A stretch of 64,000 nucleotides of DNA from Pirellulales bacterium (GCA_013360685.1 JABWBD010000003.1:91-64090); one strand, 5' to 3'; positions 1,020 to 39,511 are shown, counted from the first letter of the stretch. The notes: generated by a model not told the origin, from the letters alone. Made by a program: numbers and translations.

Positions 1020-3620
1020 ATGAGACGCTGCCGTGACTTCCTGTTGATCATGGTGCTTTGCTCCGTCGCCACCGCGGCGGACGAACCGGTCCGGAAACCA
1101 TCCGACGAACCGCTCCTGGGGTGGGCAGTCTGCCGGGTGCACCGCACGAGCGTCGTCCACCCGGCCGCCACGATAAAACCGGACGACCTTGCGAGGGCCA
1201 AGGGCAATCTTGAGCGTCATGCCTGGGCCCAGGAGTATCTGCGTGGGCTGGAGAGGTCGGTCCGTGATTGGCCGCAGAAGATCAATCCGGAGTATCTCCG
1301 GCAGATGGTCCCCGCCACAACGCCGGGCGACACCCTGTTTACTCCGTGCCCCGCTTGTCGCGATCAGGGCAAGCCCTGGCATCCGCACGGTCAATGGGAC
1401 TGGTCCGCCGAAGCATCGGACCGGCTGACCTGCAAGATCTGCGGCACCGTTTTTCCCAACGAGAAGTATCCGGAAGCGATTGAGCTGCGCGCCGCGTACG
1501 GCGGCGGCCAGGTCTTCACCTACTGCGGCGCCGAGCCCTTTCAGATCTTCAGCTATCTCGGGCGTCCGAGCTTCTCGGGCAACATTCGCGCCCGCAAAGT
1601 GCATTTCATTTCCGGGATCTGCCGGCAGCTTGCCGAAGCGTATGCCCTGAGCGGAAAGACCGAGTACGCCCGGGCGACGCGGGCCATTCTTCTGCGGCTT
1701 GCGGAAGCCTATCCGCAGTGGCTGGTCCACGTCGGCTACGGGGAATACGCCGACATGGACCCGCACGTCGCCGCTTTGAACATCAACCATCTTCCGAAGG
1801 ACGAACTCTGCCCGCCGCCGGCCAGGCCCGACCGGCGTCTGCACACGGGCTACTGGTCGGCGGGCCGCGCGTCCGGCGTCGGCATGGAAGCGGGTTTTGT
1901 GCGAAAAATGGTCGAGGCTTACGAGTTCACCTGCGAGGCGGTCGCCGACGGCCGTCCCGTCTACTCGGACGACGAACGCATCCGCATCGAGCAAGACCTC
2001 CTGCTGGAATCCTCGGTGCTCCTGTTTGCCGACAAACAGGTGAACAACAAGTCGGTAGGCAATGCCACGGCCGTGGCGCTGGTGGGCATGTCGGTCGGGC
2101 ACCCCGAGATGGTCCGCTTCGGCCTGGACGTCTTTCTCAAGACGGTCGATGGGTGGTTCCTGCCCGACGGCGGGACTTCGGAGTCGTGGGCGTACGCGAT
2201 GATGACCCTGGGCGGGGTCAGCCCGCTGGGTCAGGCCCTCCGCGGCTACAGCGATCCTCCCGGCTACCGGGACGCCGAGGGCAAGCGGATCGACCGCATG
2301 GACCTGTACCACGACACGGCTTACTCGAAGGTCTGGGCGGCCATGTTCAACGGGATGCAGGGCGATCTCAGCTATCCGCCCCTGGCCGACGGTTCGCCCG
2401 GGTCGCAACTCGGCGCCCACTATGCCGAGTTGATGGCGGACAACTACCCGGAGAACCCCCAGTACCAGGCTCTTTTGAAAGCGACGGCAGGTGACGACCT
2501 AGCGCGCGGCGATCGTTCGCTGGCGATCTATTACCGGCCGGTGGATCTCGCCGATCAGCAGGCTCCGCCCGTGACTTTGCCCGACTACTGCTTTCCCGAG
2601 CTGAAACTCGGCTACCTGCGGAGCGGCCCGACCGGCCGCGACAGTTCCCTCGTTCTCAGCGCGACGGACTGGGGCGGCCACCACCACCTTGACAGCCTTA
2701 ATCTCTACTATTGGCACCAGGGCCAGGAACTGCTGTCCGATCTCGGCTATCTCTGGGACCATCCCCAGAAACCGATGACCATGCGGACGCCGGCCCACAA
2801 CACCGTGATCGTCGACGGGAAAGACCAGGTCAGCAAAGGGCGAGGAGGCGCGTTCACGCTCTTCGCCACCACTCAGCGCGTGAAGGTGATGGAGGCGGAG
2901 TCGCGAGCGTACGCGCAAGCCGATCTCTACCGGCGGACCGTTGCCCAAATTGAGTGTTCCGACGGGAGGCATTACATCGTCGATCTCTTCCGCGTGCGTG
3001 GCGGCCAGCGGCACGAGTACGTGTTTCACGGGCCGAACCGCGACGTAGCGACGAAAGGTCCGAGCGTCGGGCCGATCGATGCCGGCGAAGTCTCTTCGGC
3101 CTTGGATCTGGCGAACGTCCGCGGCTCCGGCAAGCCGGGCCCCTGGACGCTCACGTGGAATCTTGCGGACCACCGCCGGTTCCAGGCCCTCTGGGAGAAC
3201 GAGGCCGGACAGCTCACCATGATCGGCGACGGCTGGGGCCAGCGCGACTGGCACAACACCGACCTCGGCGCGACGCTCCCCTACGTGGTCCGCCGGGCAG
3301 GAGCCGGGAAAGGTCTTACGGCCTTCGTGACGGCGTTTCAGTCCGTCGGGGCTGCCGACCCGATCGTGGAGGAGATCCGTCGTCTGCCGGTCCCGGAGGA
3401 CCAGGCCGAGGGCACGGTGCTCATTGCCGTGCGGACCGCGTCGAGCACGGAGTACGTTGTCTCTTGCATCGAGCCGCGCCGCGTGAAACTTACAACGCCC
3501 GATGGATCCTTGGAATCGGATGGCCGTTTCGCGGTCGTATCGATTCAATCGGGCAAGCCGGCCTTTGCCCAGGTCTTCGACGGAGAGGTGCTTCGCTGGA
3601 ACGACCAGGATTGCCGGTGA
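1020..3620 (+). CDS. Heparinase II/III-family polysaccharide lyase-like protein, secreted
   Basis: ORF 900..3620. Start moved to ATG 1020, giving signal peptide MRRCRDFLLIMVLCSVATAADEP. The C-terminal block GGHHHLDSLNLYYWHQGQELLSDLGYLWDHPQKPMTMRTPAHNTVIVDGKDQ matches the Hepar_II_III signature (HxHxD ... HNTxxVDG). Confidence 0.85.
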   Translation: MRRCRDFLLIMVLCSVATAADEPVRKPSDEPLLGWAVCRVHRTSVVHPAATIKPDDLARAKGNLERHAWAQEYLRGLERSVRDWPQKINPEYLRQMVPATTPGDTLFTPCPACRDQGKPWHPHGQWDWSAEASDRLTCKICGTVFPNEKYPEAIELRAAYGGGQVFTYCGAEPFQIFSYLGRPSFSGNIRARKVHFISGICRQLAEAYALSGKTEYARATRAILLRLAEAYPQWLVHVGYGEYADMDPHVAALNINHLPKDELCPPPARPDRRLHTGYWSAGRASGVGMEAGFVRKMVEAYEFTCEAVADGRPVYSDDERIRIEQDLLLESSVLLFADKQVNNKSVGNATAVALVGMSVGHPEMVRFGLDVFLKTVDGWFLPDGGTSESWAYAMMTLGGVSPLGQALRGYSDPPGYRDAEGKRIDRMDLYHDTAYSKVWAAMFNGMQGDLSYPPLADGSPGSQLGAHYAELMADNYPENPQYQALLKATAGDDLARGDRSLAIYYRPVDLADQQAPPVTLPDYCFPELKLGYLRSGPTGRDSSLVLSATDWGGHHHLDSLNLYYWHQGQELLSDLGYLWDHPQKPMTMRTPAHNTVIVDGKDQVSKGRGGAFTLFATTQRVKVMEAESRAYAQADLYRRTVAQIECSDGRHYIVDLFRVRGGQRHEYVFHGPNRDVATKGPSVGPIDAGEVSSALDLANVRGSGKPGPWTLTWNLADHRRFQALWENEAGQLTMIGDGWGQRDWHNTDLGATLPYVVRRAGAGKGLTAFVTAFQSVGAADPIVEEIRRLPVPEDQAEGTVLIAVRTASSTEYVVSCIEPRRVKLTTPDGSLESDGRFAVVSIQSGKPAFAQVFDGEVLRWNDQDCR

Positions 3621-3640
3621 ACGGGAATTCGCCTGCAGGA

Positions 3641-4534
3641 TCAACAGGTCGCCGAGGTTTTCGGTTCCGTGTGGGATGGTGTCGCTGCGGCGGAAAGGCG
3701 GGGCGGACGGCAGAAGGCCCCGGGGAACAACTGCTGCCTGCGAGCGAGATCCGCCGAGGCGGCGTATTCGCTGAGTTCGAAGACTTCGCAGAAATCGATC
3801 CGCCGGCCCCGCGCGTCGCCATAGGCCGCCACGAGGTCTTCGCGAAACCGGTCCGCCCGATGGCGCACGTGGCCGCGATACCACGGCTCCAGCCAGCGGA
3901 GCCTTTCTTCCTCGTCCTCCGGCACCTGGTCGAGAACGCCCTCCGCAAAAGGCAGCCACTCGAACACCTGGCTGCGGTGGCAGGCCAGCATGGCCAGGAT
4001 CGTGCCGGCACGATCGGTAGCGTCGAGCACGACGTCGGCCTCCAACGGGCAAGGTTTCGTGAACAGGTCGGGCATGTAGGCGACCACCGGGTCGCGCTTC
4101 AAGGCGGGCGTGTCGCGGAGCAGGTTCGGCACGGTCACCAGATATGTGGCATCCTGGACCAACTGGCCGGCGGCGCGGTGGTCGGGATGGTAGTCGTACG
4201 GCCGGTGCGCCAGTACGAGATCCGGCCGGAAGGTGCGGATCTCGCGGACCACGCGACAGCGCGTCGGGATATCTGCGACCAGTTCGCCATCGGGAATTTC
4301 CCACGTGATGTACTCCGCCCCGATCACGCGTGCGGCTGCCGCGGCCTCGGCGCGACGGATCTGAGCCAACTGCTCGGGCGGCCGGCTGAAGTGCCCGGCC
4401 TGGCCGTTGGTCATGGAGACCATGCGGACCTCGTGTCCGTGCTCGCGATAGATTGAAGCCAGGCCGCCAGCGTGGTATTCGGCATCGTCGGGGTGGGCAC
4501 CGAGGATGAGAAGGCGAAGCGGGGGAGTTGGCAT
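3641..4534 (-). CDS. PIG-L/LmbE-family N-acetylglucosaminyl deacetylase
   Basis: ORF 3641..4588. LLILGAHPDDAEYHAGGLASIYREHGHEVRMVSMTNG is the AHPDDxE zinc-deacetylase motif. Start moved to ATG 4534, which has AGGAG about 10 nt upstream; ATG 4588 remains possible. Confidence 0.85.
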   Translation of the reverse strand: MPTPPLRLLILGAHPDDAEYHAGGLASIYREHGHEVRMVSMTNGQAGHFSRPPEQLAQIRRAEAAAAARVIGAEYITWEIPDGELVADIPTRCRVVREIRTFRPDLVLAHRPYDYHPDHRAAGQLVQDATYLVTVPNLLRDTPALKRDPVVAYMPDLFTKPCPLEADVVLDATDRAGTILAMLACHRSQVFEWLPFAEGVLDQVPEDEEERLRWLEPWYRGHVRHRADRFREDLVAAYGDARGRRIDFCEVFELSEYAASADLARRQQLFPGAFCRPPRLSAAATPSHTEPKTSATC

Positions 4535-4885
4535 AAAAGACGGACTCCTATGGATGTGTAGGGAGAGCGCGATGTGGTCATTTGTCATTGGTCATTTGTC
4601 ATTTGCTTGCGGAGTGGTCGGCGACGTTGCGGGGAATTGCTGAACACGGTTTGCTGAGTCTAAATTCTCTGCGATGAAGCGCCTGGCTGCAAGTTCTGAA
4701 TGGGCTTGCGGTTGCGCGAGGGGCTTGGAACGGAGTTGGTGTTGCAGGGCGTTTGGCCAAATCGCCATACACCACCGGTTTCCGACGGGGGACCGTTGCC
4801 TTCTTCCGGATTCAAACGCCGGAGGGTAGACTGGGCAGATGCCAAAGGACATCGAGAGTGTGATCCGCGGCGCCGTAACAGAAGG

Positions 4886-7363
4886 ATGACCATGATGCGT
4901 GCAGTCCTGGTTGCCACCTTGATGGTTTTTTTCGCAGGTGATGCGGTTCTCGCCGCGGAGGAGGACTCTCCAGCCACAAATTCCTCGGCACCGGCGCAGC
5001 TTGCCGACGGGCGAGGGATTCCTGAGGTTGTCTTCGCCGTGCGGACGGTTCTTCCGGAACACTGGTACGCCAACTTCGGCTACTTTTCGCCGGACGATAA
5101 CCACAAGTGCTATGGCCAAGGCGGACGGCTGTGCAAACTGGACCTCAAGACCGGCAAACTGAGTTTGCTGTTGGAGGATCCCGAGGGGGCAGTTCGCGAC
5201 CCGTGCGTCCACTACGACGGCAGCCGAATCGTCTTCTCGTACCGCCGAGGAGGCAGCGACACCTATCATCTCTACGAGATCCAGGCCGACGGCAGCGGCC
5301 TGCGCCAACTGACCGATGGAATCTACGACGACATCGAACCCTGCTGGCTGCCCGACGGCGGCATCGTGTTCGCCTCCGCGCGCTCGCGCCGCTGGGTCCA
5401 ATGCTGGCTGACGCAGGTGGCCACTCTCCACCGATGCGATGCCGACGGCAGGAACATCCGGCAGCTCTCCGCCAACTTGGAGCACGACAACACGCCGTGG
5501 GTGCTCCCCGACGGGCGGATCCTCTACATGCGATGGGAATACGTGGACCGCTCGCAGGTGCACTACCACCATCTCTGGACGATGAACCCAGACGGCACCG
5601 GCCAGACGGTCTTCTTCGGCAACCTCCACCCGGGCGACGTCTATATCGACGCCAAGCCGATCCCCGGCAGCGACCGGGTGGCACTGATCAAGTCGCCGGG
5701 CCACGGTGCGACAGAGCACGCGGGCTATGTGGCCTCGCTCGGCGTGAAACAAGGTCCGGACCACCTCCCTTCGCTGCAGACCTTGAGCCGCAGCGCGGAC
5801 TTCCGCGATCCGTGGGCGCTGGCCGACGATTGGTTCCTGGCGGCGCGCCAGAACACGCTCGTGCTGATGGACCGGCAGGGAACGGTCAGGACGCTCTATA
5901 CCCTTCCGGCCGAGTTCGGCGGTGCCTGGCTGCACGAACCGCGTCCGCTGGCGGCGCGAAATCGCGAGCCGGTCATCCCGCCGCGCGTCAATCCGGCCCG
6001 GCCGACGGGCCGGTTCCTCTTGAACAACGTTTACTCGGGCCGCAACATGGCCGGAGTCCGGCCCGGCGAGATCAAGAAGCTCCTGGTCATCGAGAGCCTG
6101 CCGAAGCCGGTCAATTTCACCGGCGGCATGGATCCCTTGAGCTACGTGGGTACGTTCACGCTGGAGCGGGTGTTGGGCACAGTCCCCGTCGAAGCGGACG
6201 GCTCGGCCTTCTTCGAAGCGCCGGCGCTGCGAAGCTTGCTGTTTGTCGCCTTGGATGAAAACGACCTGGCGGTCAAACGCATGCAGAGCTTTGCCACGCT
6301 CCTGCCCGGCGAGACCCAGGGCTGCGTCGGCTGTCACACGCAGCGTTCGGCGACGCCGCCGGCGGAAGTTCCGCAGCTTCCCGAGGCTGCACGTCGCGCG
6401 CCGAGTGTCATCGAGCCGATCCCCGATGCGCCCGACGTTCCCGATTTTCCCCGCGATGTCCAGCCCGTGCTGGACCGCCACTGTGTGAAATGCCACGATT
6501 ACGACAAACGCGACGGGGGGGTGGTTCTCACGGGCGACCGGGGACCGATGTTCTCCCACAGCTACTATACCCTGGTGGTCTGGAGGCAGGTGGCTGACGG
6601 CCGCAACTACCCCCGCAGCAACTACCCGCCCCGAACGCTCGGCAGTGGTGGAAGCCCTTTGATGGACAAGTTGGAACCGTCGCATTACCAGGTGCAAGTT
6701 CCGGCCCGAGATCGGCAGACCGTGCGGCTTTGGCTCGACGCGGGGGCGCCCTACCCGGGAACCTACGCGGCCCTGGGCACAGGCATGATCGGCGGATACC
6801 AGAAGAACGAGCAAGTCCTGGAGAATGATGCCCAGTGGCCGCAGACCCGGGCTGCCCAGGAGGTTTTCAAGCGTCGTTGCGCCGCCTGCCATGACGAGAA
6901 ACAGCGTCCCATCCCACGGTCGCTCTCCGACGAGATCGGTCTGAGCTTCTGGGCGCCCGACATGAACGATCCGCGCCTGCGGCAGAGCCGGCACATCGTT
7001 TTCAACCTCACGCGGCCGGACCAATCGCTGATCCTGCTGGCGCCTTTGGCCAAAGCGGCGGGAGGCTACGGCCTCTGCCGATCCCCCGAGGTTTCCAAGG
7101 AGAACGGCGGCTCGGTCCTCCCCGGCAAGGATGACTCCGACTACCGCACGCTCTTGGCCATGTGTGAAGCGGGCCGCGACCGACTGAACGAGATCAAGCG
7201 GTTCGACATGCCCGGCTTCCGGCCTCGGCCGGAATATGTTCGAGAAATGAAACGATACGGTGCACTGCCGGCGACGTTCGACGGCGAAAAGGACCCGATC
7301 GACGCGTACGCCCTGGACCGTCGTTACTGGAACCTTCTTGGCTGGCCGGCGGCACAGCCCTGA
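4886..7363 (+). CDS. Secreted beta-propeller (TolB-like) protein with C-terminal three-CxxCH cytochrome c-like region
   Basis: ORF 4700..7363. ATG 4886 gives signal peptide MTMMRAVLVATLMVFFAGDAVLAAEE. Propeller-like repeats are present (YEIQADGSGLRQLTDG, CDADGRNIRQLS, WTMNPDGTGQTVFF), followed by heme-c motifs CVGCH, CVKCH and CAACH. Confidence 0.7.
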   Translation: MTMMRAVLVATLMVFFAGDAVLAAEEDSPATNSSAPAQLADGRGIPEVVFAVRTVLPEHWYANFGYFSPDDNHKCYGQGGRLCKLDLKTGKLSLLLEDPEGAVRDPCVHYDGSRIVFSYRRGGSDTYHLYEIQADGSGLRQLTDGIYDDIEPCWLPDGGIVFASARSRRWVQCWLTQVATLHRCDADGRNIRQLSANLEHDNTPWVLPDGRILYMRWEYVDRSQVHYHHLWTMNPDGTGQTVFFGNLHPGDVYIDAKPIPGSDRVALIKSPGHGATEHAGYVASLGVKQGPDHLPSLQTLSRSADFRDPWALADDWFLAARQNTLVLMDRQGTVRTLYTLPAEFGGAWLHEPRPLAARNREPVIPPRVNPARPTGRFLLNNVYSGRNMAGVRPGEIKKLLVIESLPKPVNFTGGMDPLSYVGTFTLERVLGTVPVEADGSAFFEAPALRSLLFVALDENDLAVKRMQSFATLLPGETQGCVGCHTQRSATPPAEVPQLPEAARRAPSVIEPIPDAPDVPDFPRDVQPVLDRHCVKCHDYDKRDGGVVLTGDRGPMFSHSYYTLVVWRQVADGRNYPRSNYPPRTLGSGGSPLMDKLEPSHYQVQVPARDRQTVRLWLDAGAPYPGTYAALGTGMIGGYQKNEQVLENDAQWPQTRAAQEVFKRRCAACHDEKQRPIPRSLSDEIGLSFWAPDMNDPRLRQSRHIVFNLTRPDQSLILLAPLAKAAGGYGLCRSPEVSKENGGSVLPGKDDSDYRTLLAMCEAGRDRLNEIKRFDMPGFRPRPEYVREMKRYGALPATFDGEKDPIDAYALDRRYWNLLGWPAAQP

Positions 7364-28376: not shown

Positions 28377-29600
28377 ATGACCAAAGTCACCCATCTCATT
28401 GTATTGTTTGCAGTCTCGATGGCCTTGCTGCCCGTCGCAGGCCGATGCGGCGCCGCGGACGCCGCACGGCAACTTCTCCCGGAGTATTCCCGTCTTGCGA
28501 AAGGAGTCGGCCGGCTGGTTGTTTCGATGGAGACGTCGCGAGAAGCCTTTCCCGAGGAGGAGCCGAGCATGGCTGAAGCGATCCGCGAGTTGTACGCGGT
28601 CGCCATCGATCTTCATGGCATTCAATCCGAGGACTCCCAGTTGAGCTATATCGCCTCTCAATCGCAACGCGCTGTCGCCGAGGCGATCGAAGCGTTCGAG
28701 CGCATCGAAAGGATGCCAAAGCCTTCCGCCGTTGATGTGCTCGGCGGGTCGATCATCTCCGGCTCCCTTGGCGATCCGATCGTTGGCCCAACGGTTTTGG
28801 CCCTCGACGCCATGAAGAAGTCCGAGGATATGATGGCCGAACTCAAGAAAGCCGTGGCAATCTGGAATCGCCTTGACGGCATCCATTCTGGACTTCCCTG
28901 CGTCGCGCAAAAATACTCGCCCGCGGTTGTGGATCAACCGGACCGGCTCGTCCTCGACTTCGACGAAGCGTGGGGGCCGGTCGGCCCGCACGACTGGCTC
29001 CGCCTGGAGAACAACGGGCAAGACCTGGCCGACTGCACAATCCTGGTGGAACTGACTGGCAAATCGGGCCCCGCCCGGCGGAACGTCCACTTTGTCGAGC
29101 ACTGGCCCGCGCACACGCCCCTGTATGCCCGATACGAACCAGGTTTCCTACTCGACGGCGAGTATGCCGGGCGCACGACCGTGTCGAAGGTCCAGCAAAT
29201 CGCCGTAACCGTGTGGTCGCCGAAGGAATCCTTCCGAGCAATCTGTACCTACCTCGGCGAGGAGAAGGATCGCGATATCGCCCGATACTGCGAGACGCTC
29301 TCGCTACATGGTTCGTACAGACCTTTTGAGAAGGGATTTCTCTGGGATACCCAACGCGCCGCCGTCTTTTCGCTCGACGGCATCGAGTCGCTCCCGCCAT
29401 GCCGAGTGACCGTCACGTTCAGCCGCGGCAAGCAATCGAAATGCTGGGATTGGGAGTTGGACGGTTGGAGCCGAGGGCAACGCAAGACGTTCCAGCCGTC
29501 CCGAGGCGCGCTGCCCTTCGACGCGCAGAGAATCGTGGGGGAGATCACGTTCCCGGACACCGGCTACAAACATCGGACCTCGCTTGCAGTGAACCAGTGA
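28377..29600 (+). CDS. Hypothetical secreted protein (full-length copy of a duplicated domain)
   Basis: AAGGAG RBS; signal peptide MTKVTHLIVLFAVSMALLPVAGRCGAADA. The C-terminal ~240 aa are about 85 percent identical by eye to ORF 33270..33947. Confidence 0.6.
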   Translation: MTKVTHLIVLFAVSMALLPVAGRCGAADAARQLLPEYSRLAKGVGRLVVSMETSREAFPEEEPSMAEAIRELYAVAIDLHGIQSEDSQLSYIASQSQRAVAEAIEAFERIERMPKPSAVDVLGGSIISGSLGDPIVGPTVLALDAMKKSEDMMAELKKAVAIWNRLDGIHSGLPCVAQKYSPAVVDQPDRLVLDFDEAWGPVGPHDWLRLENNGQDLADCTILVELTGKSGPARRNVHFVEHWPAHTPLYARYEPGFLLDGEYAGRTTVSKVQQIAVTVWSPKESFRAICTYLGEEKDRDIARYCETLSLHGSYRPFEKGFLWDTQRAAVFSLDGIESLPPCRVTVTFSRGKQSKCWDWELDGWSRGQRKTFQPSRGALPFDAQRIVGEITFPDTGYKHRTSLAVNQ

Positions 29601-30254: not shown

Positions 30255-31760
30255 CTACTCAAGCACTTGTTCACGCAGAAAATCAATCTGGTCGGCAACG
30301 TCCAATCGGTTCGTCCAGTTTTCGACCTGATGCGTCCAGAAGAAATCGAGTTCGTTCAGCAGCTCCGGCGCGTGGTCGCTCACATATTGGCCACATACCG
30401 TACGGCCACGACAGGCGAGCATGTACAACAGCCATCGCCGCCGCTGTCCCGAGCTTGCACGAATCAGTCGCACTATGTGCGGCACGAAATCGAGTCGGCT
30501 CAGCAAGACCGCTTGTACCAACCCGGCAGACTGGCGGCCGTCGTCGCCGACGTGCCGCAAAAGTGCTTCGAGATTGTCGGAACAGACCATTCTTGAGAGC
30601 GCCAAGATAGCATGGACGGCCACCACTTCGTCGCTATCATGGACATGAGCGACCAGGCCGGTCAATTCGGCATCGGTCGAAACCTCCGCCAGTCCCCAAG
30701 CGCCGGCCGCTCGCAATTCCGAGTCGTTCGACGTATCTTCCACCAAGCCTCTCAGGAGATCAAGGGATCGTCTGCCAGGCATCTCGGCCAGTATCAGTGC
30801 CGATTCCATTCGGTACTCTCTGGCCACGTCATGGTCATGGACGATCCTGGAAATCGAATCCCATCCCTCCTCGAAGCCAAGACGAGCAAGTGAAGCGGCT
30901 GCCTCCAGGCGAATTCTGCCGTCCTCGGAGTGGTCCATGAGGTGGCTGAGCCGCCCCCTGCTCACGGCGGCTACGTCGGGCAGGAACCCCAGTGCTTTCA
31001 CCGCGGCATACACCGACTCGGTGCTGTCGCTTTCCAAATCGGAGAAGAAGTCGTATCGCTGCGACGGGGAAGCTGAAGGGGTCAACATGACGCGCAGCGC
31101 CGACGCGAGAATCGCGTCGCCGTCGCCGAACACGTCACCGACGTTGACGTGCGGTACTAGCCTTAATCTTCCGCTGCCCGATTTGCGCAAGAGGCGATAG
31201 GTTTGCTTTCGGCCGCCCGCCAACTGCGTGCTGATGGAGTCGCGCGACACGCTCAAGACCCTGCCCGCCCGTTTGGCGACCATTGTGGGCCAGGTGAAAG
31301 GGACCTCGCTTCCTTCCGATGCTGACTTCCTTTGCCCCGGCTTGGCCAGGTGCCAAGTGGACCGCATATCGCCGACGCGAAAAATCGCCACTCGATCACT
31401 GGCTATCCAGGTATCGTCGATCGGCCAGCATCGAATGAACGCCACGATGTCGTGGTCTCGGAGTCCTTTGTCCCATGCGCGATCGGGGTTGTTTACCGAG
31501 TGAGACATCGTGATCTTCAGATCGGCCTTGGCGCGGCACTCGATCCGTATGCCGGACTCCAGACAGAGAAGATCGGGAACCCGCAATCGCTTGATCTTGG
31601 TTGCCCAAATCTTGATGCTGCAACAGTAGCGTTCCAGTTCGATGATGCGGAATCCACCCTGCCTCAGGATGGCGGCAACCTTTCGCGTGCCAACCGCACC
31701 GATGCTGACGTTTCGTAGAAACTCCCGGTTGCTCTTGAACCCCACGGTGGCCGCCCTCAA
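30255..31760 (-). CDS. Hjc/PD-(D/E)xK-like N-terminal domain fused to HEAT (PBS-lyase-type) repeats; occupies the R slot of a C-controlled R-M-like cassette
   Basis: The TTG start (31760-31758) overlaps the TGA stop of the upstream C gene (TTGA). The N-terminus GAVGTRKVAAILRQGGFRIIELER...VPDLLCLESGIRIECRAK follows the Hjc/restriction-endonuclease-fold pattern (G...GF.v.R ... PD ... hExK), with Thr for the first Glu and ECR/AK for ExK. The C-terminus has at least 5 HEAT-like repeats (DGRIRLEAAASLARLG, DSELRAAGAWGLAEV, SDEVVAVHAILALSRM ...). Confidence 0.65.
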   Translation of the reverse strand: MRAATVGFKSNREFLRNVSIGAVGTRKVAAILRQGGFRIIELERYCCSIKIWATKIKRLRVPDLLCLESGIRIECRAKADLKITMSHSVNNPDRAWDKGLRDHDIVAFIRCWPIDDTWIASDRVAIFRVGDMRSTWHLAKPGQRKSASEGSEVPFTWPTMVAKRAGRVLSVSRDSISTQLAGGRKQTYRLLRKSGSGRLRLVPHVNVGDVFGDGDAILASALRVMLTPSASPSQRYDFFSDLESDSTESVYAAVKALGFLPDVAAVSRGRLSHLMDHSEDGRIRLEAAASLARLGFEEGWDSISRIVHDHDVAREYRMESALILAEMPGRRSLDLLRGLVEDTSNDSELRAAGAWGLAEVSTDAELTGLVAHVHDSDEVVAVHAILALSRMVCSDNLEALLRHVGDDGRQSAGLVQAVLLSRLDFVPHIVRLIRASSGQRRRWLLYMLACRGRTVCGQYVSDHAPELLNELDFFWTHQVENWTNRLDVADQIDFLREQVLE

Positions 31761-31978
31761 TGGCTGGCAGCATCAGGCATCAGCTCCGACATGGCGACAT
31801 CCAAGGCGATGGCCAACCTCTCGATGTTCACGAGAGAGATGTTGCGTTCGCCACGTTCGACGCCACTGACGTAAGTCCGATGAAGGCCGGCCAGGTCCGC
31901 CAGCCTTTCCTGGGAAATCCCCTTCTTTCGGCGGATTTCTCGGAGTCGTTCCCCAAACCGGACCTGCACGTCGGACAA
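31757..31978 (-). CDS. Controller (C) protein, XRE-family HTH regulator of R-M systems
   Basis: A 73-aa protein. GISQERLADLAGLHRTYVSGVERGERNISLVNIERLAIALDV closely follows the conserved C-protein core (LSQE.LA...G..R.Y.S..ERG.RN.SL.NI..LA.AL). TTG start. It is divergent from the methyltransferase and overlaps the downstream gene. Confidence 0.85.
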   Translation of the reverse strand: MSDVQVRFGERLREIRRKKGISQERLADLAGLHRTYVSGVERGERNISLVNIERLAIALDVAMSELMPDAASH

Positions 31979-32018: not shown

Positions 32019-32090
32019 TTGACGGCAGTGTCGGGGATTGCATATTATACGTCTACAGCCTTTAAGTTACGGTAACGTATCGTCTACACG
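32019..32090. promoter_or_regulatory. Divergent promoter/operator candidate for the M and C genes
   Basis: AT-rich patch. TTGACG (32019-32024), an 18-nt spacer, then TATTAT (32043-32048) reads toward M. Direct repeats TATaCGTCTACA (32046-32057) and TATCGTCTACA (32078-32088) lie 31 bp apart and flank the palindrome GTTACgGTAAC (32066-32076). Confidence 0.4.
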
Positions 32091-32145
32091 ACTGGGAAAC
32101 TTCCGGGAAACTTGGTACGCTGCAATGAAGAGGAGAGCACGCTCG

Positions 32146-33135
32146 ATGCAGGGGAATGGACGAGTAGTCGAGGTCTACCGGACCAAGTTCGGCAGGGCGG
32201 TTCTGTCCAAGGCCGAAGACTACCTGCCGTCAATGCCGGAAAACTCCGTAGACTTGGTGGTCACGTCGCCCCCTTTCGCCCTCTTGCGACAGAAGGCATA
32301 TGGGAACCTGGACCAAGCCGATTACGTCGATTGGCTCGTCTCGTTTGGCCCGCTGGTGCGACGAGTCCTGAAGGACAGCGGCAGTTGGGTGCTGGACTTG
32401 GGCGGCGCCTATCAGCGCGGAGTCCCCTGCCGCTCGTTGTACAACTACCGGGTTCTTCTTCGGCTGTGTGATGAACACGGCTTCTATCTCGCCGAGGAGT
32501 TCTTCTGGCACAACCCGGCCAAACTGCCTTCGCCCATCGAATGGGTGAACAAGCGCAAGATTCGCGCTAAGGATTCAGTCAATACGATCTGGTGGCTTGC
32601 CAAGTCCGAGAATCCCAAGGCCAATGTCAGCAATGTCCTTGCGCCCTACAGCGCGCGCATGAAGCAGTTGATGAAGGATCCGGAAGCCTTCTATCGACCG
32701 AAGGATCGTCCGTCCGGGCACGACATCAGCGCCAAATTCGGCAAAGACAACGGTGGGGCGATCCCCTCAAACCTATTGCAGTACCCGAACACCGAGAGCA
32801 ACTCCGTCCATATCCGGCTGTGCAAGGCGCACGACGTCGAACCGCACCCTGCGCGGTTCCCTCGCTCGTTGCCGGAGTTCTTCATCAAGTTCTTGACCGA
32901 TTCCGGCGATACGGTCATGGACATTTTCGCCGGCTCGAACACGACGGGGGAGGCGGCTGAGTTGCTGGGCCGATCCTGGATTGCTCTGGAGTGCAATGTC
33001 GAATACATTATTGGCTCGGCCTTCCGGTTCATGGCCGAATGGCCGGACGATGAAGTCGCGGACTTCGTCCGCAAGGCTCGGGACGTTCCGGCCGAACCTT
33101 TACGCGTCCGATCGTTGCAGCGATCACTATTCTGA
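32146..33135 (+). CDS. Beta-class amino DNA methyltransferase, SPPF type (predicted N4-cytosine; N6-adenine not excluded)
   Basis: ORF 32038..33135. ATG 32146 has AGGAG 10 nt upstream; ATG 32125 is possible. Motif IV VDLVVTSPPFALL precedes motif I DIFAGSNTTGEAAELLGRSWIALE, which is the beta-class order. HPARFP is also typical of this N4/N6 family. Confidence 0.9.
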   Translation: MQGNGRVVEVYRTKFGRAVLSKAEDYLPSMPENSVDLVVTSPPFALLRQKAYGNLDQADYVDWLVSFGPLVRRVLKDSGSWVLDLGGAYQRGVPCRSLYNYRVLLRLCDEHGFYLAEEFFWHNPAKLPSPIEWVNKRKIRAKDSVNTIWWLAKSENPKANVSNVLAPYSARMKQLMKDPEAFYRPKDRPSGHDISAKFGKDNGGAIPSNLLQYPNTESNSVHIRLCKAHDVEPHPARFPRSLPEFFIKFLTDSGDTVMDIFAGSNTTGEAAELLGRSWIALECNVEYIIGSAFRFMAEWPDDEVADFVRKARDVPAEPLRVRSLQRSLF

Positions 33136-33206: not shown

Positions 33207-33947
33207 CGCCATTACCACTCCGGTGGACACGCGTGGCTGGTTCCCAGGATTTCGCAGAAATACGCGCCGGTGATTGTAAATCAACCGGACCAGCTCATCC
33301 TCGACTTCGACGAGGCCTGGGGGCCGGTCGGCCCGAACGACTGGCTCCGCCTGGAGAACATCGGGCAAGACCTGGCCGACTGCACAAATCTGGTGGAACT
33401 GACCGCCAAATCGGGCCCCGCTCGGCGGAACGTCCACTTTGTCGAGCACTGGCCGGCGCACACGCCCCTCTATGCTCGATACGAACCGGGTTTCCTACTC
33501 GACGGCGAGTACGCCGGGCGCACGACCGTGTCGGAGGTCCGGCAACTCGCCGTAACCGTGTGGTCGTTGAAGGAAGCCTTTCGAACGAGCTATGTCTACC
33601 TTGGCGAAGAGAAGGATCACGATATCGCCCGATACTGCGAGATGCTCTCGCTGCACGGATCGTACAGGCCCTTTGAGGAGGGCTTGCTCTGGGACACCCA
33701 GCGGGCCGCCGTCTTCACGCTCGACGGCATCGAGTCGCTTCCGCCGTGCCGGGTGATCGTCACGTTCATCGGCGGCGGTCAATCGAAGTCCTGGTACTGG
33801 GAGTTGGACGGCTGGAGTCGGGGGCAGCGCAAGACGTTTCAGCCGCCGCGAGGCGCCTTGACGTTTGATGCGCAGAGAATCGTGGGAGAAATCACGTTCC
33901 CGGAGACGCGCTACAAGCATCGAACCACGCTTCCGGTGAGCCATTAA
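33207..33947 (+). pseudogene. 5'-truncated paralogue of gene 28377..29600 (C-terminal domain only)
   Basis: ORF 33270..33947 (GTG start). Homology to 28885-29600 already begins upstream of that GTG (..YHSG..SQKYAPVIVNQPDQLILDFDEAWGPVGP.. versus ..IHSG..AQKYSPAVVDQPDRLVLDFDEAWGPVGP..). It lacks the signal peptide and the N-terminal ~170 aa. It could still be expressed as a stand-alone domain. Confidence 0.5.
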
Positions 33948-33959
33948 CGCGGGTACCTA

Positions 33960-34619
33960 TCATTTTGGAAGGTGTTCCACCATTCCGTCCTCCGATACAA
34001 CCAAAATAAGACACTTCTCATGCTGGCTTAAGTACCGGACTGCCGAGTTGTATCTTGCACCCCGGGCCGGATCGCCGTGTTTGCTTGCTTTGCCATCGAG
34101 AATGACGCCAATGCCGTGGCACACGCCATTAAGATCAACGACGATCGCGCCGTCGATCGCGGACGCTCCCGTGATCAATTCTTCAGTCGCTTTGAAAGGG
34201 AGGATGGTGCCGCCTTCAGCTAACCGCCGCGCCTCCTTGCGCGCGGACGGAGAAATCACGAGCATTGTGCCGTGCTTCGCCTTCGCCGCGAACGACACCA
34301 TATCGAGCAGTCGAGCCTTTGCGGTAGAACTAATGGATGGAAAGATCCGCTGGAGCGCAGCTTCGACCTCAGCCACATCATACTGGCGCTTTGGGAGTCC
34401 CGGCTGCCCGTATTCGACGCGCATCAGCGCAGTGTCGAGATGCCATAATTCCCAACAATGGTGTTTGACGAACTTGACTTCAAAAGTGTCGGCGTTCGTT
34501 ACATCGTATTGCTTTCGATCAAAGTTCCCAAGTCCGTAGACACAGCGAGAGTCCGACAGGACGTGCAAGTTTTCCGTGCACATTTCCAGGATTTTGCGCG
34601 CTCGTCGGTAATGAACCAT
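33960..34619 (-). CDS. Diadenylate-cyclase (DisA_N/DAC)-like domain protein with a degenerate RHR motif
   Basis: Residues 116-219 reproduce the DAC block order: HGTMLVIS (GALIV block), SAIDGAIVV (DGA motif), GDPARGARYNSAVRY (in place of GTRHRAA) and LILVVSEDGMV (VVSEETG block). The N-terminal 115 aa are unassigned. The stretch has lower G+C. Confidence 0.6.
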   Translation of the reverse strand: MVHYRRARKILEMCTENLHVLSDSRCVYGLGNFDRKQYDVTNADTFEVKFVKHHCWELWHLDTALMRVEYGQPGLPKRQYDVAEVEAALQRIFPSISSTAKARLLDMVSFAAKAKHGTMLVISPSARKEARRLAEGGTILPFKATEELITGASAIDGAIVVDLNGVCHGIGVILDGKASKHGDPARGARYNSAVRYLSQHEKCLILVVSEDGMVEHLPK

Positions 34620-34709
34620 CGGAATCGACGGGCTGAACTTGATCTGAGCATTGACTGCGGGATGGCCAATGTCACAGACGATCAGATTGCCGATGCCTTC
34701 TTGCTGTTC

Positions 34710-35501
34710 CTACCTCATTGACGAGATGACCGTCGCCGCATCGAACAGGTCGTAGGTGCCATGAAGCAAGGTATCTCTCGGAGAGAACCGCGTTCCAGCC
34801 CACGCCTGGTCGCGCGTGAAGAAGGTACCTGCAATGCGTAGAAGTTCGCGTGTGTCGCGCTGCCTCCATTCCAGCAACGCGCCGGCATTGCGCTTCCTCA
34901 ACTCTTCCGCCGCGTCAGCGAGCACGACCTCGACGGCACCCCACACGAAGGACGGCGACCGGCCGTTCTGCTGATACACAGAGCCATCGAGGTGCGGGTA
35001 GCGGTTATACTGATCGCGATGGACCGCGGCAATGAGGCAGACCACATACCCGTTAATTTCGGCTGGTTGCGACGCAAAGACCAGCATGGAGTGCGAGTCG
35101 AGTATCTCTTCCACGGCGTGCTTGATCTCGCGCCAGCACGTCCGTAGGAAGTCGCAGTGCCTCGAATATGTGTTTCCCCATTTGGCTGGAGGCAACCCAT
35201 CGTTCGGAGGGAGCGTCCTGGCGGTTGTGAGTTCCTGGAACCTTCCAGTGAACTGGCGGGATTTAACGGGAGCCACGCGCGTAGGCGATACAACTGTCTT
35301 CCCATTTGCGAGACTCGCCCCCACCAAGAACACCCAGGGAGTCATTTCCGCCCCGAGTGACTCAAGGACATTTTCTAACGTATTCCGATACAGGTGCACA
35401 AATTCATCTTGATGTTGCCATATCCGACGTGTTCGCACGGAAACCTCCAAAGTCTTCTTCGTGGATTGTGCAAAAGGACCTCCACTGCTGGCAGGATACA
35501 A
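34710..35501 (-). CDS. Hypothetical protein, upstream partner of the DAC-like gene
   Basis: A 263-aa ORF with a TTG start (uncertain), on the same strand and 90 bp upstream of the DAC-like gene. G+C is lower than the flanks. No motif was recognised. Confidence 0.5.
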   Translation of the reverse strand: MYPASSGGPFAQSTKKTLEVSVRTRRIWQHQDEFVHLYRNTLENVLESLGAEMTPWVFLVGASLANGKTVVSPTRVAPVKSRQFTGRFQELTTARTLPPNDGLPPAKWGNTYSRHCDFLRTCWREIKHAVEEILDSHSMLVFASQPAEINGYVVCLIAAVHRDQYNRYPHLDGSVYQQNGRSPSFVWGAVEVVLADAAEELRKRNAGALLEWRQRDTRELLRIAGTFFTRDQAWAGTRFSPRDTLLHGTYDLFDAATVISSMR

Positions 35502-35726: not shown

Positions 35727-38324
35727 CTACTGGTTTTGGGCACTTAAGCCCTCGAAGATCCCAAGATAGGAAAGCGACCGGACAAAAGCGTCTCGTTCCT
35801 TTTCCGCCCAACTCAGTGCGGCTGCCGGTTGGCCCGCGGCCGCCTGGGCAGCACCGATTTTGCGGAGGGTGGAGGCGCGAGCGGAAATGTTTTGAATCCT
35901 TCTGGCCGTAACCAAGGCCGCGTCCAACAAACCCGCCGCAGCTTGAGTGGACGCGATCTTCTCAAAGCGCAATTCGCCCGAAACCGTATCTCGAATCCCC
36001 TCAGTTGCTGTCAATGCCTCATCGAGGGTCGTTCGCGCTCGCGTTGTGAATCCAGCCTGTATTTCGAGCGCAGCGATATCGGCTAAGACATCCGTAGGAG
36101 ATGAGCAGTATTCAACCCTCCTGCCCGCCGCCAGTGCTTTGTCGAAAGTCTTCTGCGCTTCAGCCGGCATACCCGCCTTGGCTTGTTCGGCCGCGATTTC
36201 GCCAAGTGCCCCAGCACCGATCTCGATTAGGCCGACGGTTGTCCTCGACGCGACTTCGATGTGCGCGACCGTTTCCAGAGCCGAATCGAAAAAGCCCGCC
36301 TGGGCCTGCGCAACCGCAATATTACGGAGCAACCAGGCTTCCACCCATGCTTCTTTAGCATTATTAGCTGCCGCTAAGGCTTGGTCGAAGGTCTGCTGGG
36401 CTATGGGTTTTAAGCCAGCCTTGGCTTGCGCAGCAGCGACTTTGCTGAGGGCGGGAGCGCGCCACGGTACATCTTCGATCTTCCCAATAGTTGCCATCGC
36501 CTCGCCGAACAAGCCCGCCTCAGCCTGCGCAGTGGCAATCTGGTCGAGCGCCGTTATCCCGGAAAGCATCTTTTCAGCCGTAACGAGGGCTTTATCGAAT
36601 AAACGCGCCTTGGCCTGCGCGGCGGCGATGTTGCTGAGTGCTGACTGGCAGACGGCCTCAAAGCCTTCGATCCCTTCGGCGGTCGCCAATGCATCGTCAA
36701 AAAAACCCGCCTCAGCTTGACTTGTAGCGATATCTTTCTTTCGCCGTGCCGCCTCGCCGTTCCGATTGATCACGACCCCTGTCGCCCCCACAAGAGGAGG
36801 AAGCTCTTTGATTTGCCTTGCTGCCGCCAATGCATCGTAGAACGTCCTCTGGGCTTCGGCAGTCAAGCCCGCCTTCGCTTGGGCTGTAGCAATCTCCGTT
36901 AATCCGAAGGCCCTCCACGATTCGCGTTCGACCCGTTCAACTGTTCGGAAAGCCCCGTCGACAAATCCCGATTTGGCCTGGGAAGCGGCGATGGAACTGA
37001 GCGCAAAGGATTGGTCCTCCCCAGCGCCTAATTCACCTGCTGCCGCTAATGCCTGGGAAACTATATCGCCTATAGGCGCTATTACAGGCGGCAAATCATC
37101 CGGCGCTGCCTCCCCGCCATTGCCCAACGGCCCCGGCTGCGTGATTATCAGGGTAGCTGGCCGTAACATAAAAGCAATTACAAGTATCAAGGAGGCAGCT
37201 ATCGGGGCGGCCACAAGCCACCGCCAAAATCTTGGAGTGTTCGATCGTGGGGCGGATGCAACACGCGACGCGTGCTCTCGGAGATCGCGTGCCAAATCTG
37301 CCGCCGTCGTGTAGCGTTGGCCTGGGTCCTTCGCCATCGCTTTGAAGCAGATTCGTTCCACCTCTGGCGGGATCGAATCGTCAATAGTCCGTGGCGGCCG
37401 GGGTTCACGTTTGAGGACCTGTTCACGCAGGTCGGCGCGGCGACCGGCCCGAAATGGCGGCCGGCCGGTTAGCAACTCGTAAAGAACCACGCCGAGGCTG
37501 TAGATGTCGGCGCGCGCCGTCACGCGGAGCCCTTCCCCGGATGCCTGCTCCGGAGCCATGTACAATGGCGTGCCCGTGACAACGTCCTGCTCGTCAAGCA
37601 GCTCGTCTTCGCTCGCAGCGATGCCGAAATCGGTCACGTACGCCTTGCCTTGGGCGTCAAGCAGAATGTTGCCCGGCTTGATGTCGCGATGGACAAGGCC
37701 CTGGAGATGCGCGTGATGCAGCGCCTCGGCCACCTCCGCCACGATTCGAGCCGACTCATCAAACGATAGCCGGCCCGCCGCAATCCGTTTGGCAAGATCG
37801 GTTCCTTCGATCCACTGGGAGACTATGTAGCAGCCCGATCGGTTCGGCCCAACGTCGAACACCTGCACGATGCTCGGGTGGTGTAGCTTGGCGACCTTGC
37901 GGGCCTCCTCCAGGAATCTGGCGGCCTGGATCCGGGAGCCGAGCCGCCCGGGACGCGGAATCTTGATGGCGACGTCGCGGTCCAACTCCGGATCGCGACC
38001 TCGCCACACCTGTCCGAAACCACCCTCGCCGATAAGCTGCTCAAGCTGATAACGCCCAAGCGTGGTCGGCGACTCCACGACGAACGAGTGGTCGCCCCTG
38101 CCGGTGTTCGCGACTTCATCGGGCCATGATGAGTCGCCCTGGAGGTCAATAAGGAACTTGTCGATCGATTCCAACAAGCCGATGCGCCGGGCAACCTCGT
38201 CCCGGAGCTCGGTATCGTCACCGCACAGTTTCGATAGTGAAACGCTCTCGCCTTGAGCGCGGAGGGTATCCCAGTGCGCGAGAAGCTCATCCGCACGAGA
38301 TTCGAAGGACTCGCCTGCCTTCAT
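35727..38324 (-). CDS. Ser/Thr protein kinase with one TM helix and an extracytoplasmic 'IAxAQAxAG' helical-repeat domain
   Basis: The track ORF 35727..38999 is over-extended. ATG 38324 (MKAGESFESRADELL) lies 14 nt after the sigma-factor stop. Hanks motifs are present: GEGGFGQVWRG, VAIK, HRDIKPGNILL, DFG, TPLYMAPE. TM helix: FWRWLVAAPIAASLILVIAFML. At least 11 repeats follow. Confidence 0.85.
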   Translation of the reverse strand: MKAGESFESRADELLAHWDTLRAQGESVSLSKLCGDDTELRDEVARRIGLLESIDKFLIDLQGDSSWPDEVANTGRGDHSFVVESPTTLGRYQLEQLIGEGGFGQVWRGRDPELDRDVAIKIPRPGRLGSRIQAARFLEEARKVAKLHHPSIVQVFDVGPNRSGCYIVSQWIEGTDLAKRIAAGRLSFDESARIVAEVAEALHHAHLQGLVHRDIKPGNILLDAQGKAYVTDFGIAASEDELLDEQDVVTGTPLYMAPEQASGEGLRVTARADIYSLGVVLYELLTGRPPFRAGRRADLREQVLKREPRPPRTIDDSIPPEVERICFKAMAKDPGQRYTTAADLARDLREHASRVASAPRSNTPRFWRWLVAAPIAASLILVIAFMLRPATLIITQPGPLGNGGEAAPDDLPPVIAPIGDIVSQALAAAGELGAGEDQSFALSSIAASQAKSGFVDGAFRTVERVERESWRAFGLTEIATAQAKAGLTAEAQRTFYDALAAARQIKELPPLVGATGVVINRNGEAARRKKDIATSQAEAGFFDDALATAEGIEGFEAVCQSALSNIAAAQAKARLFDKALVTAEKMLSGITALDQIATAQAEAGLFGEAMATIGKIEDVPWRAPALSKVAAAQAKAGLKPIAQQTFDQALAAANNAKEAWVEAWLLRNIAVAQAQAGFFDSALETVAHIEVASRTTVGLIEIGAGALGEIAAEQAKAGMPAEAQKTFDKALAAGRRVEYCSSPTDVLADIAALEIQAGFTTRARTTLDEALTATEGIRDTVSGELRFEKIASTQAAAGLLDAALVTARRIQNISARASTLRKIGAAQAAAGQPAAALSWAEKERDAFVRSLSYLGIFEGLSAQNQ

Positions 38325-38338
38325 TGGACCGGCCCCCG

Positions 38339-38968
38339 TTAGTGATCGCCCGGCCGAGCTCCGTGAAGGGCCTTGTGCAACATCAACCGAGCGGACCGCC
38401 AACGCCGCTTGGCAGTTCGTTCCGAGATGTTGAGCGATTCGGCTGCCTCCTTCAGCGGAAGCCCCGCGTAGAAGTAAAGGTCGAACAACTCGCGCTCCTC
38501 CTCCGGAAGTCGCTCCACCGTCTCGTGAAACTCGGTCCACTCGGCCACTGTGGCCGGACCATCGGTGGCGGCGGGGGGTTGGTCGCCGAACGGGACCGAA
38601 TCCGTTTCGCCCGGGCGTCGCCCGACCGTGTCGTGATGGGCGCCCATCCCCTCCGAACCATAAAGACGTCGCGCCAGATCGATCAACTCCCGGCGGATCT
38701 GAACGGCGGCCAGCCTGAAAAAGTGCGACGGCGAACTGGGCGTCCCTGCCGACAACGCGCGCTGCAGGCGGATGGCCGCCTGCTGGACCACGTCGTCGGT
38801 CTCCTCCCACCGACGCACCCGCGGAAAATCCTTCAACAGCCGGTGCGCCAACCTGTGGAGCCGTTCCGTGGCGAAGGCAAACAAGGCATCGCGGGCGGCC
38901 GCATCGCCGGCTCGCAACCGGTCCAAACAGTGTTCGATTTCTGTGGTTTGTCCCGCGGAGCGTGGCAT
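38339..38968 (-). CDS. ECF-type RNA polymerase sigma factor (kinase-associated type)
   Basis: ORF 38339..39133, start moved to ATG 38968. The region 2 block is DDVVQQAAIRLQRAL. The region 4 block is LPEEERELFDLYFYAGLPLKEAAESLNISERTAKRRWRSARLML. A Ser/Thr kinase follows directly, as in planctomycete ECF-STK pairs. Confidence 0.85.
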   Translation of the reverse strand: MPRSAGQTTEIEHCLDRLRAGDAAARDALFAFATERLHRLAHRLLKDFPRVRRWEETDDVVQQAAIRLQRALSAGTPSSPSHFFRLAAVQIRRELIDLARRLYGSEGMGAHHDTVGRRPGETDSVPFGDQPPAATDGPATVAEWTEFHETVERLPEEERELFDLYFYAGLPLKEAAESLNISERTAKRRWRSARLMLHKALHGARPGDH

Positions 38969-39511
38969 GACACGTGACCTCAAGGGCCGTAAACCGCAAC
39001 CAGCCGACCAGCCCATCCTACCAGCTAAACTTGCTGGCTGCAAGCAAGCTCGCTGGCGGGGGTGCATTCCTGTTTCTCCGCGCTCCCCACAAAACACCGA
39101 GCGAAATGCGGCTTCGCAACCCGCGGCGATCAAACGCTTTGCGGTAATCTGCGGGAAAAACAGCTACTCGAGCGCAGAAACGGGAGTGCACCCAACTGGG
39201 GGGGCGGCAGCCAGGTTTGCGCGTCCCAGCGAGTCCGAAACAATGCCGGCACGAGATGGGCGTGGCGCAAACATTTTCATTGTAGTGGGTTTCGCGAAAT
39301 GCTGTCTGTCGTAGGTCCCCGGACCTGTACGCCGAGATCCCGCTCGGCAAGCGGCATCTACCAGTTGTTACCCCGTTGGAACCATGCCGCCCTTCGTGTT
39401 TTCGCCGAGAATCGTGTCCCCTACGGCCATTGGCTCTCGCTTGGTTCATGTAGAGGCAGGCAAGCCGGTGCTGCCTGCGAGTTACGACCATCCGCAGAAG
39501 GAGACCCAGTC

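Follow-up and report, generated by a model that had tools for sequence, protein, structure and literature searches.

Two neighbouring open reading frames (ORFs) on the minus strand of a Pirellulales genome, within the 64,000-nucleotide stretch of DNA analysed here (hereafter the window), raise the question of whether they form a new two-gene module built around a diadenylate cyclase (DAC) domain. An earlier note had read them in this way, as a two-gene cassette whose genes lie 90 bp apart, in which a 219-aa DAC-like protein with RHR replaced by RYN is accompanied by a 263-aa protein of no recognisable motif, possibly serving a defence or conflict role undescribed for this fold. Here, we show that 33960-35438(-) is a single gene of the CdaG / DS-2C family that is split by a premature stop codon, and we weigh what this interruption implies for the state of the gene.

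One gene in one reading frame

The two ORFs were recovered with the extents and lengths first proposed for them (Table 1), and profile searches assigned nearly their entire length to known domains. The 263-aa ORF, which was thought to carry no motif, matches Pfam DACNG (PF21752, E = 1.7e-29, 103.7 bits) over profile positions 1-207 of 208. The 219-aa ORF matches Pfam DACNH (PF21750, 2.6e-13, 50.2 bits) over profile positions 49-106 of 107, as well as DAC (DisA_N, PF02457, 4.8e-13, 49.2 bits), and its supposedly unassigned N-terminal part is the C-terminal half of DACNH. Neither ORF was matched by PADLOC v2, a 2023 release that predates DS-2.

Translation of the minus strand from 35591 to 33600 placed both ORFs in the same frame, with the TAG at 34710-34712 as the sole interruption. 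With this TAG read as Tyr, the read-through comprises 513 sense codons from TTG or 492 from GTG, and contains DACNG at residues 27-228 (101.5 bits), DACNH at 250-355 (profile positions 1-106 of 107, 92.5 bits, compared with 50.2 bits for the 219-aa ORF alone) and DAC at 405-508 (49.0 bits), all exceeding the Pfam cut-off of 27 bits. DACNH is complete at the DNA level only, with the TAG falling within the domain. A single NCBIfam model of 576 positions, NF053872 ('DS2_3_antiphage'), covers the 263-aa ORF at positions 5-236 and the 219-aa ORF at 272-489; read-through residues 27-513 align to positions 5-489 with 385 bits, below the equivalog cut-off of 630, under which the long forms P0026 (608) and P0058 (585) also narrowly fall.

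We found 1234 homologues in a collection of 5.8 billion proteins, and most of the 120 listed combine all three domains in a single polypeptide of 484-637 aa. The best matches, P0001 and P0002 (529 aa), share 56% identity with the read-through over 95-96% of its length, and identity to the 76 family members aligned with it (77 rows in total) ranges from 31 to 56%. When homologous loci were compared with the window by tblastn, one unbroken HSP of 494 aa ran across the TAG, from 35447 to 33969. The window gene thus presents the three CdaG / DS-2C domains DACNG, DACNH and DAC in family order and departs from the family in the in-frame TAG, none of the ~85 other loci being interrupted. The two-gene cassette could not be upheld on these grounds: there is one frame, the supposed 90-bp spacer is coding sequence for conserved parts of DACNH, and the homologues align as one HSP.

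Although the longest ORF begins at TTG 35501, the true start is likely GTG 35438-35436, because homologues begin at the equivalent position and a GGAGG precedes it. The TAG corresponds to read-through residue 264 and to codon 243 counted from this GTG. When the sequence was scanned for promoters and terminators, no promoter-like site came up, and terminator-like sites were no more frequent than expected by chance.

Table 1 Features of the interrupted gene and of the adjacent R-M cassette, in window coordinates.
Feature	Position	Strand	Basis or remark
501-aa ORF, HEAT repeats, start overlapping the C-protein gene end by 4 nt	30255-31760		R-M cassette
C-protein (control protein, 1.5e-27)	31757-31978		R-M cassette
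Type II MTase (PF01555; PADLOC MTase_II, 461 bits)	32038-33135		R-M cassette
Whole interrupted cdaG / DS-2C-type gene, short form	33960..35438	-	One frame; NF053872 match; homologue starts
ORF, 219 aa	33960-34619	-	3' fragment: C-terminal 58 profile positions of DACNH, helical linker, DAC
Supposed 90-bp spacer: 30 in-frame sense codons for DACNH residues (corresponding to two beta-strands of the P0001 model)	34620..34709	-	Pfam score gain
Premature in-frame TAG, inside DACNH	34710..34712	-	Translation; homologue alignment
ORF, 263 aa (coordinates include the stop)	34710-35501	-	Called from sequence
5' fragment without stop: DACNG (residues 27-228) and first 14 DACNH residues	34713..35501	-	Pfam
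Shine-Dalgarno-like GGAGG, 5 nt upstream of the GTG start	35444..35448	-	Sequence; function inferred

Active-site motif, fold and C-terminal end

All motif blocks claimed for the 219-aa ORF are present, namely HGTMLVIS, SAIDGAIVV, GDPARGARYNSAVRY and LILVVSEDGMV, with DGA at D156, G157 and A158 and R-Y-N at R189, Y190 and N191; D156, G157, R189 and N191 are invariant family positions. In the numbering of the 77-row alignment, D450 and G451 occur in 77 rows, A452 in 73, and R480, G481, R483 and N485 in 77, while position 484 is Y in 67 rows and F in 10. R-[Y/F]-N is fixed in every aligned homologue (76/76), and the window gene has all the active-site motifs of the family, I-D-G-A and R-G-A-R-[Y/F]-N-S-A-x-R-Y. 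In the alignment to PDB 2fb5, DGA pairs with DGA, and G-A-R-Y-N-S-A with G-T-R-H-R-A-A. What had been taken for a local replacement of RHR is therefore a motif fixed family-wide.

The 'DS-2C' enzymes of H. wooponensis and H. elongatus make c-di-AMP in vitro, and 3'3'-c-di-AMP synthesis is reported for Hymenobacter and Flagellimonas members (10.64898/2026.08.10.743927). In the genomes of H. wooponensis and H. elongatus, we found genes for short-form proteins that carry GARYNSA. Since Hymenobacter species with reportedly active enzymes encode this motif, RYN is compatible with catalysis and is no mark of degeneration, and the suggestion of a degenerate nucleotide-binding domain loses its footing.

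The DAC-like character of the C-terminal domain was borne out by both profile (Pfam, 49 bits) and structure search. The AF2 model of the exact 219-aa ORF has a mean pLDDT of 93.5, and its top 50 Foldseek matches in the PDB are all DisA, CdaA, CdaM or DacA at probability 1.0, with a TM-score of ~0.6 as normalised to DAC targets of ~150 residues; the P0001 model gave the same outcome. As judged from these models, the C-terminal domain truly adopts the DAC fold. That the 219-aa ORF is modelled confidently alone would speak against an inactivated gene, although AF2 is insensitive to missing strands.

DisA, CdaA (DacA), CdaS and CdaM share with the window gene the catalytic fold, DGA and the first Arg of RHR, whereas the H-R of RHR is [Y/F]-N in the window gene and the N-terminal domains are different. 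Compared with DisA, the window protein lacks the C-terminal HhH DNA-binding domain, as was noted from the beginning: Pfam gives DACNG, DACNH and DAC alone, with 5 further residues between the DAC match and the C-terminus. Compared with CdaA / DacA, whose N-terminal transmembrane anchor it appears to lack, its N-terminus is DACNG, which is predicted to be globular in the P0001 model, and glmM/cdaR synteny is missing; the absence of a CdaA-type context was likewise correctly recognised, the neighbours being an R-M cassette and an ECF-sigma/kinase pair, neither cdaR nor glmM.

The alignment separates a short form, with 0-36 residues after DAC (41 rows including the window), from a long form with 84-100 (36 rows). 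The window protein has 0 residues past the DAC domain in the alignment and ends at NF053872 position 489, so that profile positions 490-576, a C-terminal helical bundle of ~90 residues, are absent. We considered a C-terminal truncation by an adjacent duplicated fragment and rejected it, because the window C-terminus (…VVSEDGMVEHLPK) ends level with the natural short forms P0004 and P0009.

The premature stop codon and the state of the gene

The site of the TAG is Tyr in 72 of the 76 homologues, and the adjoining Glu is invariant. Logan contigs spanning the TAG were found in runs X1 and X2 (sample S1, study P1, 2020) and in runs X5 and X7 (sample S3, study P3, 2022), in both cases with no differences. 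As P1 and P3 are two independent activated-sludge studies, the TAG is identical in the contigs of four independently assembled runs, and is for this reason real. The allele seems to be fixed in the strain across the 2020 and 2022 samples. Stop-codon reassignment was rejected, since another 8 genes of the window terminate in TAG.

No internal stop occurs in any of the ~85 other family loci, the apparent ones in L017 and L038 lying upstream of the true start. Neither an intact TAY allele nor a close relative was found by exact 41-mer in genome contigs, or by degenerate 26-mer or protein scan (the latter in metagenome contigs), and no record of the exact product of the 263-aa ORF was found. Apart from the TAG, the gene is well preserved, with no frameshift or second stop. 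Leaving out position 264, 71 columns are conserved at ≥85%, of which the gene retains 69 (homologue mean, 94%); L314V and D509E are the two exceptions. In the linker and DAC region it keeps 42 of 43. Relative to homologues at 56% identity, synonymous sites are already saturated. This lack of decay suits a very recent mutation and, equally, continued selection on a working locus.

We consider it probable that this CdaG / DS-2C gene, cut by a nonsense codon, is a recently inactivated copy (pseudogene). Substitution of one base, turning TAY (Tyr) into TAG at this almost invariant DACNH residue, would end translation after DACNG, and the catalytic half could then be made only by re-initiation 30 codons downstream of the TAG. 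For the intact homologue P0001, the AF2 model (pLDDT 90.9) places the equivalent residue, Tyr243, after a helix (231-240) and ahead of the DACNH strands 251-254 and 262-273. Because the initial Met of the 219-aa ORF aligns with P0001 residue 274, a re-initiated product would be without these two strands, that is, without the first 44 DACNH residues. It is the combination of a translation ending after DACNG and a re-initiated half missing 44 DACNH residues that makes inactivation the most likely state, in what would be an accessory gene within a small variable region shared with the R-M cassette. Intact family members, by comparison, would be cytosolic three-domain enzymes that convert two ATP into 3'3'-c-di-AMP, with DACNG and DACNH as putative sensor or regulatory domains ahead of the catalytic DAC domain. 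We infer a loss of function, a recent mutation, and a horizontal acquisition as cargo of a mobile element or defence island.

The undecayed state of the rest of the gene leaves some room for a working split or read-through, and we regard it as unlikely that the locus still functions in this manner. It could do so either through low-level read-through or suppression, or through separate synthesis of the halves with re-initiation at ATG 34619, in which case DACNG and a truncated DACNH-DAC might constitute a deregulated or trans-regulated cyclase. Consistent with a functional locus, the catalytic and conserved residues after the stop are intact (42/43 columns), an in-frame ATG lies 30 codons past the stop, the allele persists in two studies, and the NCBI pipeline calls a 202-aa product at the locus. 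However, TAG is the stop codon of 8 other genes of the window, where no suppressor tRNA was found, there being no tRNA genes at all; ATG 34619 has no SD-like motif upstream, whereas the real start has its GGAGG; the 44 DACNH residues that would be lost are conserved in every homologue; and no naturally split or similarly truncated member was seen among the ~85 loci. A natural two-domain DACNH-DAC precedent for the 219-aa ORF was also rejected, since the phage and plasmid matches confined to that part belong to full-length proteins, of 766 and 572 aa. It is highly improbable that the TAG arose in sequencing or assembly and that the organism has an intact gene: word depth at the site is low (~2-5 per run), and contigs, in which minority variants are invisible, were inspected rather than reads, yet four independently assembled runs from two studies and years show zero differences at the site, and the truncated product is likewise called in a further, separate Logan contig and in the NCBI record. 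We attach the faintest probability of all to two genes forming a novel nucleotide defence module with a DAC-like domain altered or degenerate via RYN. Two ORFs are indeed callable, and the R-M neighbour and the lower G+C are real, but both ORFs are collinear with single-polypeptide homologues and with one NCBIfam model, the 'spacer' consists of conserved domain residues, R-[Y/F]-N is invariant, with short-form RYN genes in Hymenobacter species of reported c-di-AMP synthesis, and the family had been described beforehand. The claims of two genes, of an undescribed module and of degeneration are thus refuted by the frame, the prior family literature and the fixed R-[Y/F]-N, respectively.

Genomic context and relation to known systems

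The locus is AT-richer than its surroundings, as observed previously (G+C of 0.559, compared with 0.632 for the window), and sits in a broader dip of 0.57-0.60 between 28 and 42 kb. The R-M-like cassette reported alongside was also confirmed, comprising a type II MTase, a C-protein and a 501-aa ORF (Table 1), the last of which is presumably the R-M endonuclease. Further flanking genes encode an ABC transporter, a lipoate ligase, an ECF sigma (PF07638) and Ser/Thr kinase pair, and a MutS-like protein. No CD-NTase, phospholipase or 2TM-beta gene was detected by Pfam from 20.3 to 43.5 kb or by PADLOC from 22.6 to 43.5 kb; a long-form locus from Spirosoma (L054), taken as a positive control, gave Cyclase/CD-NTase (8e-122) and Phospholipase (6e-110) matches near its DAC gene. 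Neither a tRNA gene nor an integrase was seen in the window, and no remnant of the mobile elements of the homologues was found there, the DAC gene alone being held in common.

At least 587 reference genomes carry a relative. In 47 loci, mostly of Hymenobacter, the chromosomal surroundings of the gene are conserved, with clusters of flanking genes recurring in 31-39 loci, and cdaG in the Hymenobacter group behaves like a core gene; outside this group, neighbours hardly ever recur. The closest relatives of the window gene are cargo of mobile elements. A TrwC relaxase is present in L001 and L005, a tyrosine integrase in L001 and L003, and a WH_1-DUF8437-helicase protein in L001, L003 and L005, with ERF also in L005, while L006 is located at a prophage end, adjoining an integrase and a HATPase_c_3 protein. 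The immediate neighbours of the gene in these four loci have no recognised function. Family members were further found on 11 plasmid records, among them B. toyonensis p355, in which the gene is flanked by a reverse-transcriptase-domain gene on one side and a type I R-M system on the other, and in one Bacillus phage, two genes from an integrase. The possibility raised in the earlier note, that the homologues are core genes with non-defence synteny, holds for the 47-locus branch and not for the branch nearest the window.

In one preprint (10.64898/2026.08.10.743972), CdaG denotes the DACNG-DACNH-DAC architecture, a name credited there to Galperin, J Bacteriol 2023. Two CdaG branches of ~575 aa are reported to have an excess of antiphage genes among their neighbours, and at times to lie next to CD-NTases and 2TM-beta effectors (10.64898/2026.08.10.743972). 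DS-2, a CBASS variant with a DAC gene (phospholipase, cGAS, DAC), was validated in the DefensePredictor preprint; mutation of the predicted DAC catalytic residues abolished defence, and 15 of 30 homologues adjoin a CBASS (bioRxiv 10.1101/2025.01.08.631726). The window gene shares with the CdaG / DS-2C family the domains and their order as well as the DGA and R-[Y/F]-N-S-A motifs, and is set apart by the TAG inside DACNH and, relative to the ~575-aa branches, by the lack of the ~90-residue C-terminal helical bundle. The DAC component of DS-2 (which also comprises a phospholipase and a cGAS-like CD-NTase) is homologous to the window gene (385 bits, NF053872), but the window has no CD-NTase, phospholipase or 2TM-beta effector, the NF053872 score is below 630, and positions 490-576 are absent. 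The short-form CdaG of Hymenobacter resembles the window gene in ending a few residues past DAC, in GARYNSA and in having no CBASS partner, yet is only 31-35% identical to it and occupies a conserved chromosomal neighbourhood (TonB_C, PCC, DUF4442), unlike the nearest relatives of the window gene (56%), which are mobile-element cargo. In Panoptoo / PanDA, a DAC domain is used in phage defence, a feature in common with the DAC of the window gene's family; there, PanS is a single-domain DAC of ~150 aa that acts with an S2TM-beta membrane effector (PanE), in contrast to the ~490 codons, three domains and lack of an effector-like neighbour in the window.

Of the proposed defence or conflict module, the family's link to defence (DS-2) and the occurrence of the nearest relatives on mobile elements lend support to the general idea; its two-gene composition and its novelty do not stand. 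Pfam entries, the name CdaG, NF053872 and in-vitro c-di-AMP data (10.64898/2026.08.10.743927) exist already, and the fold is not undescribed in this respect. The family, its domains, the motif variant, the enzymatic product and the defence link have all been described, to which the window adds a new and probably dead member, and the finding opens no new class of system.

For the annotation of this genome, our results imply that the two 'hypothetical' ORFs belong in one entry, marked as an interrupted diadenylate cyclase gene of the cdaG / DS-2C type. Across the family, R-[Y/F]-N stands where RHR would be expected and is a fixed CdaG signature, and at least three genomic lifestyles can be distinguished: a core gene in Hymenobacter, a CBASS-linked long form (DS-2), and a short form carried as cargo of integrase/relaxase elements with no recognisable partner. 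We speculate, while holding it to be rather doubtful, that the mobile short-form clade represents a stand-alone, single-gene conflict module of which the window copy was recently silenced. DACNG and DACNH would then sense an invader and DAC would flood the cell with c-di-AMP, which might act via the host's own receptors with no dedicated effector, and the window strain may have silenced its copy by a nonsense mutation, for example as mis-firing is costly. It is less likely that the split is itself functional and yields a deregulated cyclase. A freshly silenced copy beside an R-M cassette matches the rapid turnover that is expected for accessory conflict genes.

Surroundings of the restriction-modification cassette

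The region around the restriction-modification (R-M) cassette contains a gapless direct repeat of 691 bp with 87% identity, the copies of which lie at 28906-29596 and 33253-33943 of the window. It involves a 407-aa gene, without a match in Pfam or PADLOC, and its shorter paralogue. The two copies bracket the entire cassette, which suggests that it entered a pair of tandem paralogues by insertion, or by recombination between them. Only 12 bp separate the end of the truncated paralogue from the stop of the convergent diadenylate cyclase (DAC) gene.

Within the cassette, the 501-aa ORF is presumably the restriction endonuclease; its 5' end and the 3' end of the C-protein gene share 4 nt, and it is transcribed divergently from the methyltransferase. 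Its sole match is to HEAT repeats (PF13646), confined to the C-terminal half; no match was obtained for the N-terminal ~250 residues. A type II endonuclease with HEAT repeats would be unusual.

A 1090-aa Ser/Thr kinase strongly matches the PADLOC models "PD-T4-6" and "mad6" through its generic kinase domain only, and these matches are probably not evidence of defence. Because the longest-ORF calls of the kinase and of the ECF sigma factor overlap each other, the true start of the kinase probably lies further downstream.

Features of the window and of loci carrying CdaG relatives
Locus	Feature	Position	Strand	Remarks
Window	407-aa gene	28377-29600	+	longer paralogue
Window	501-aa ORF	30255-31760	-	putative restriction endonuclease
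Window	225-aa ORF	33270-33947	+	5'-truncated paralogue of the 407-aa gene
Window	1090-aa Ser/Thr kinase	35727-38999	-	longest-ORF call; long Ala-rich repeat C-terminal region
Window	ECF sigma factor (PF07638)	38339-39133	-	longest-ORF call; upstream of the kinase
L011	PADLOC "mad2" match	1214-2254		neighbour of long-form CdaG, Paludibacteraceae MAG
L016	PADLOC "mad2" match	2716-3600		neighbour of long-form CdaG, Phycisphaerae MAG
L089	766-aa protein	3416-5716		Bacillus phage PHBA67-J (temperate); middle part matches CdaG

CdaG relatives on mobile elements and phage

Alongside the nearest CdaG relatives of the window's gene (loci L001, L003 and L005, the last identical to L008), we observed a recurring, very large protein with the Pfam domains WH_1 (PF28553), DUF8437 (PF28554) and Helicase_dom (PF28555). 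A TrwC-type relaxase-helicase occurs at L001 and L005, while L001 and L003 carry a tyrosine integrase; these loci look like integrative elements of a single family, hosted by Planctomycetota-like genomes. The phage protein at L089, encoded two genes from the phage's integrase, is a relative whose flanking domains differ, its middle part sharing 30% identity (E = 5e-33) with the DACNH and DAC portion of CdaG.

Genomic settings of the short and long forms

In the Hymenobacter-type set (L007 and L012-L087; 47 loci, mostly Hymenobacter), the chromosomal neighbourhood of the short-form CdaG gene is conserved over dozens of species and includes TonB_C-, PCC- and DUF4442-type genes, in which respect it resembles that of a housekeeping DAC. 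The H. wooponensis and H. elongatus enzymes have been named "DS-2C", i.e., defence-associated, in a 2026 preprint (10.64898/2026.08.10.743927); this label may not be applicable to the Hymenobacter branch. At L011 and L016, matches to the "mad2" (methylation-associated defence) model occur in place of CBASS genes, which hints that long-form CdaG is associated with defence systems of at least two kinds.
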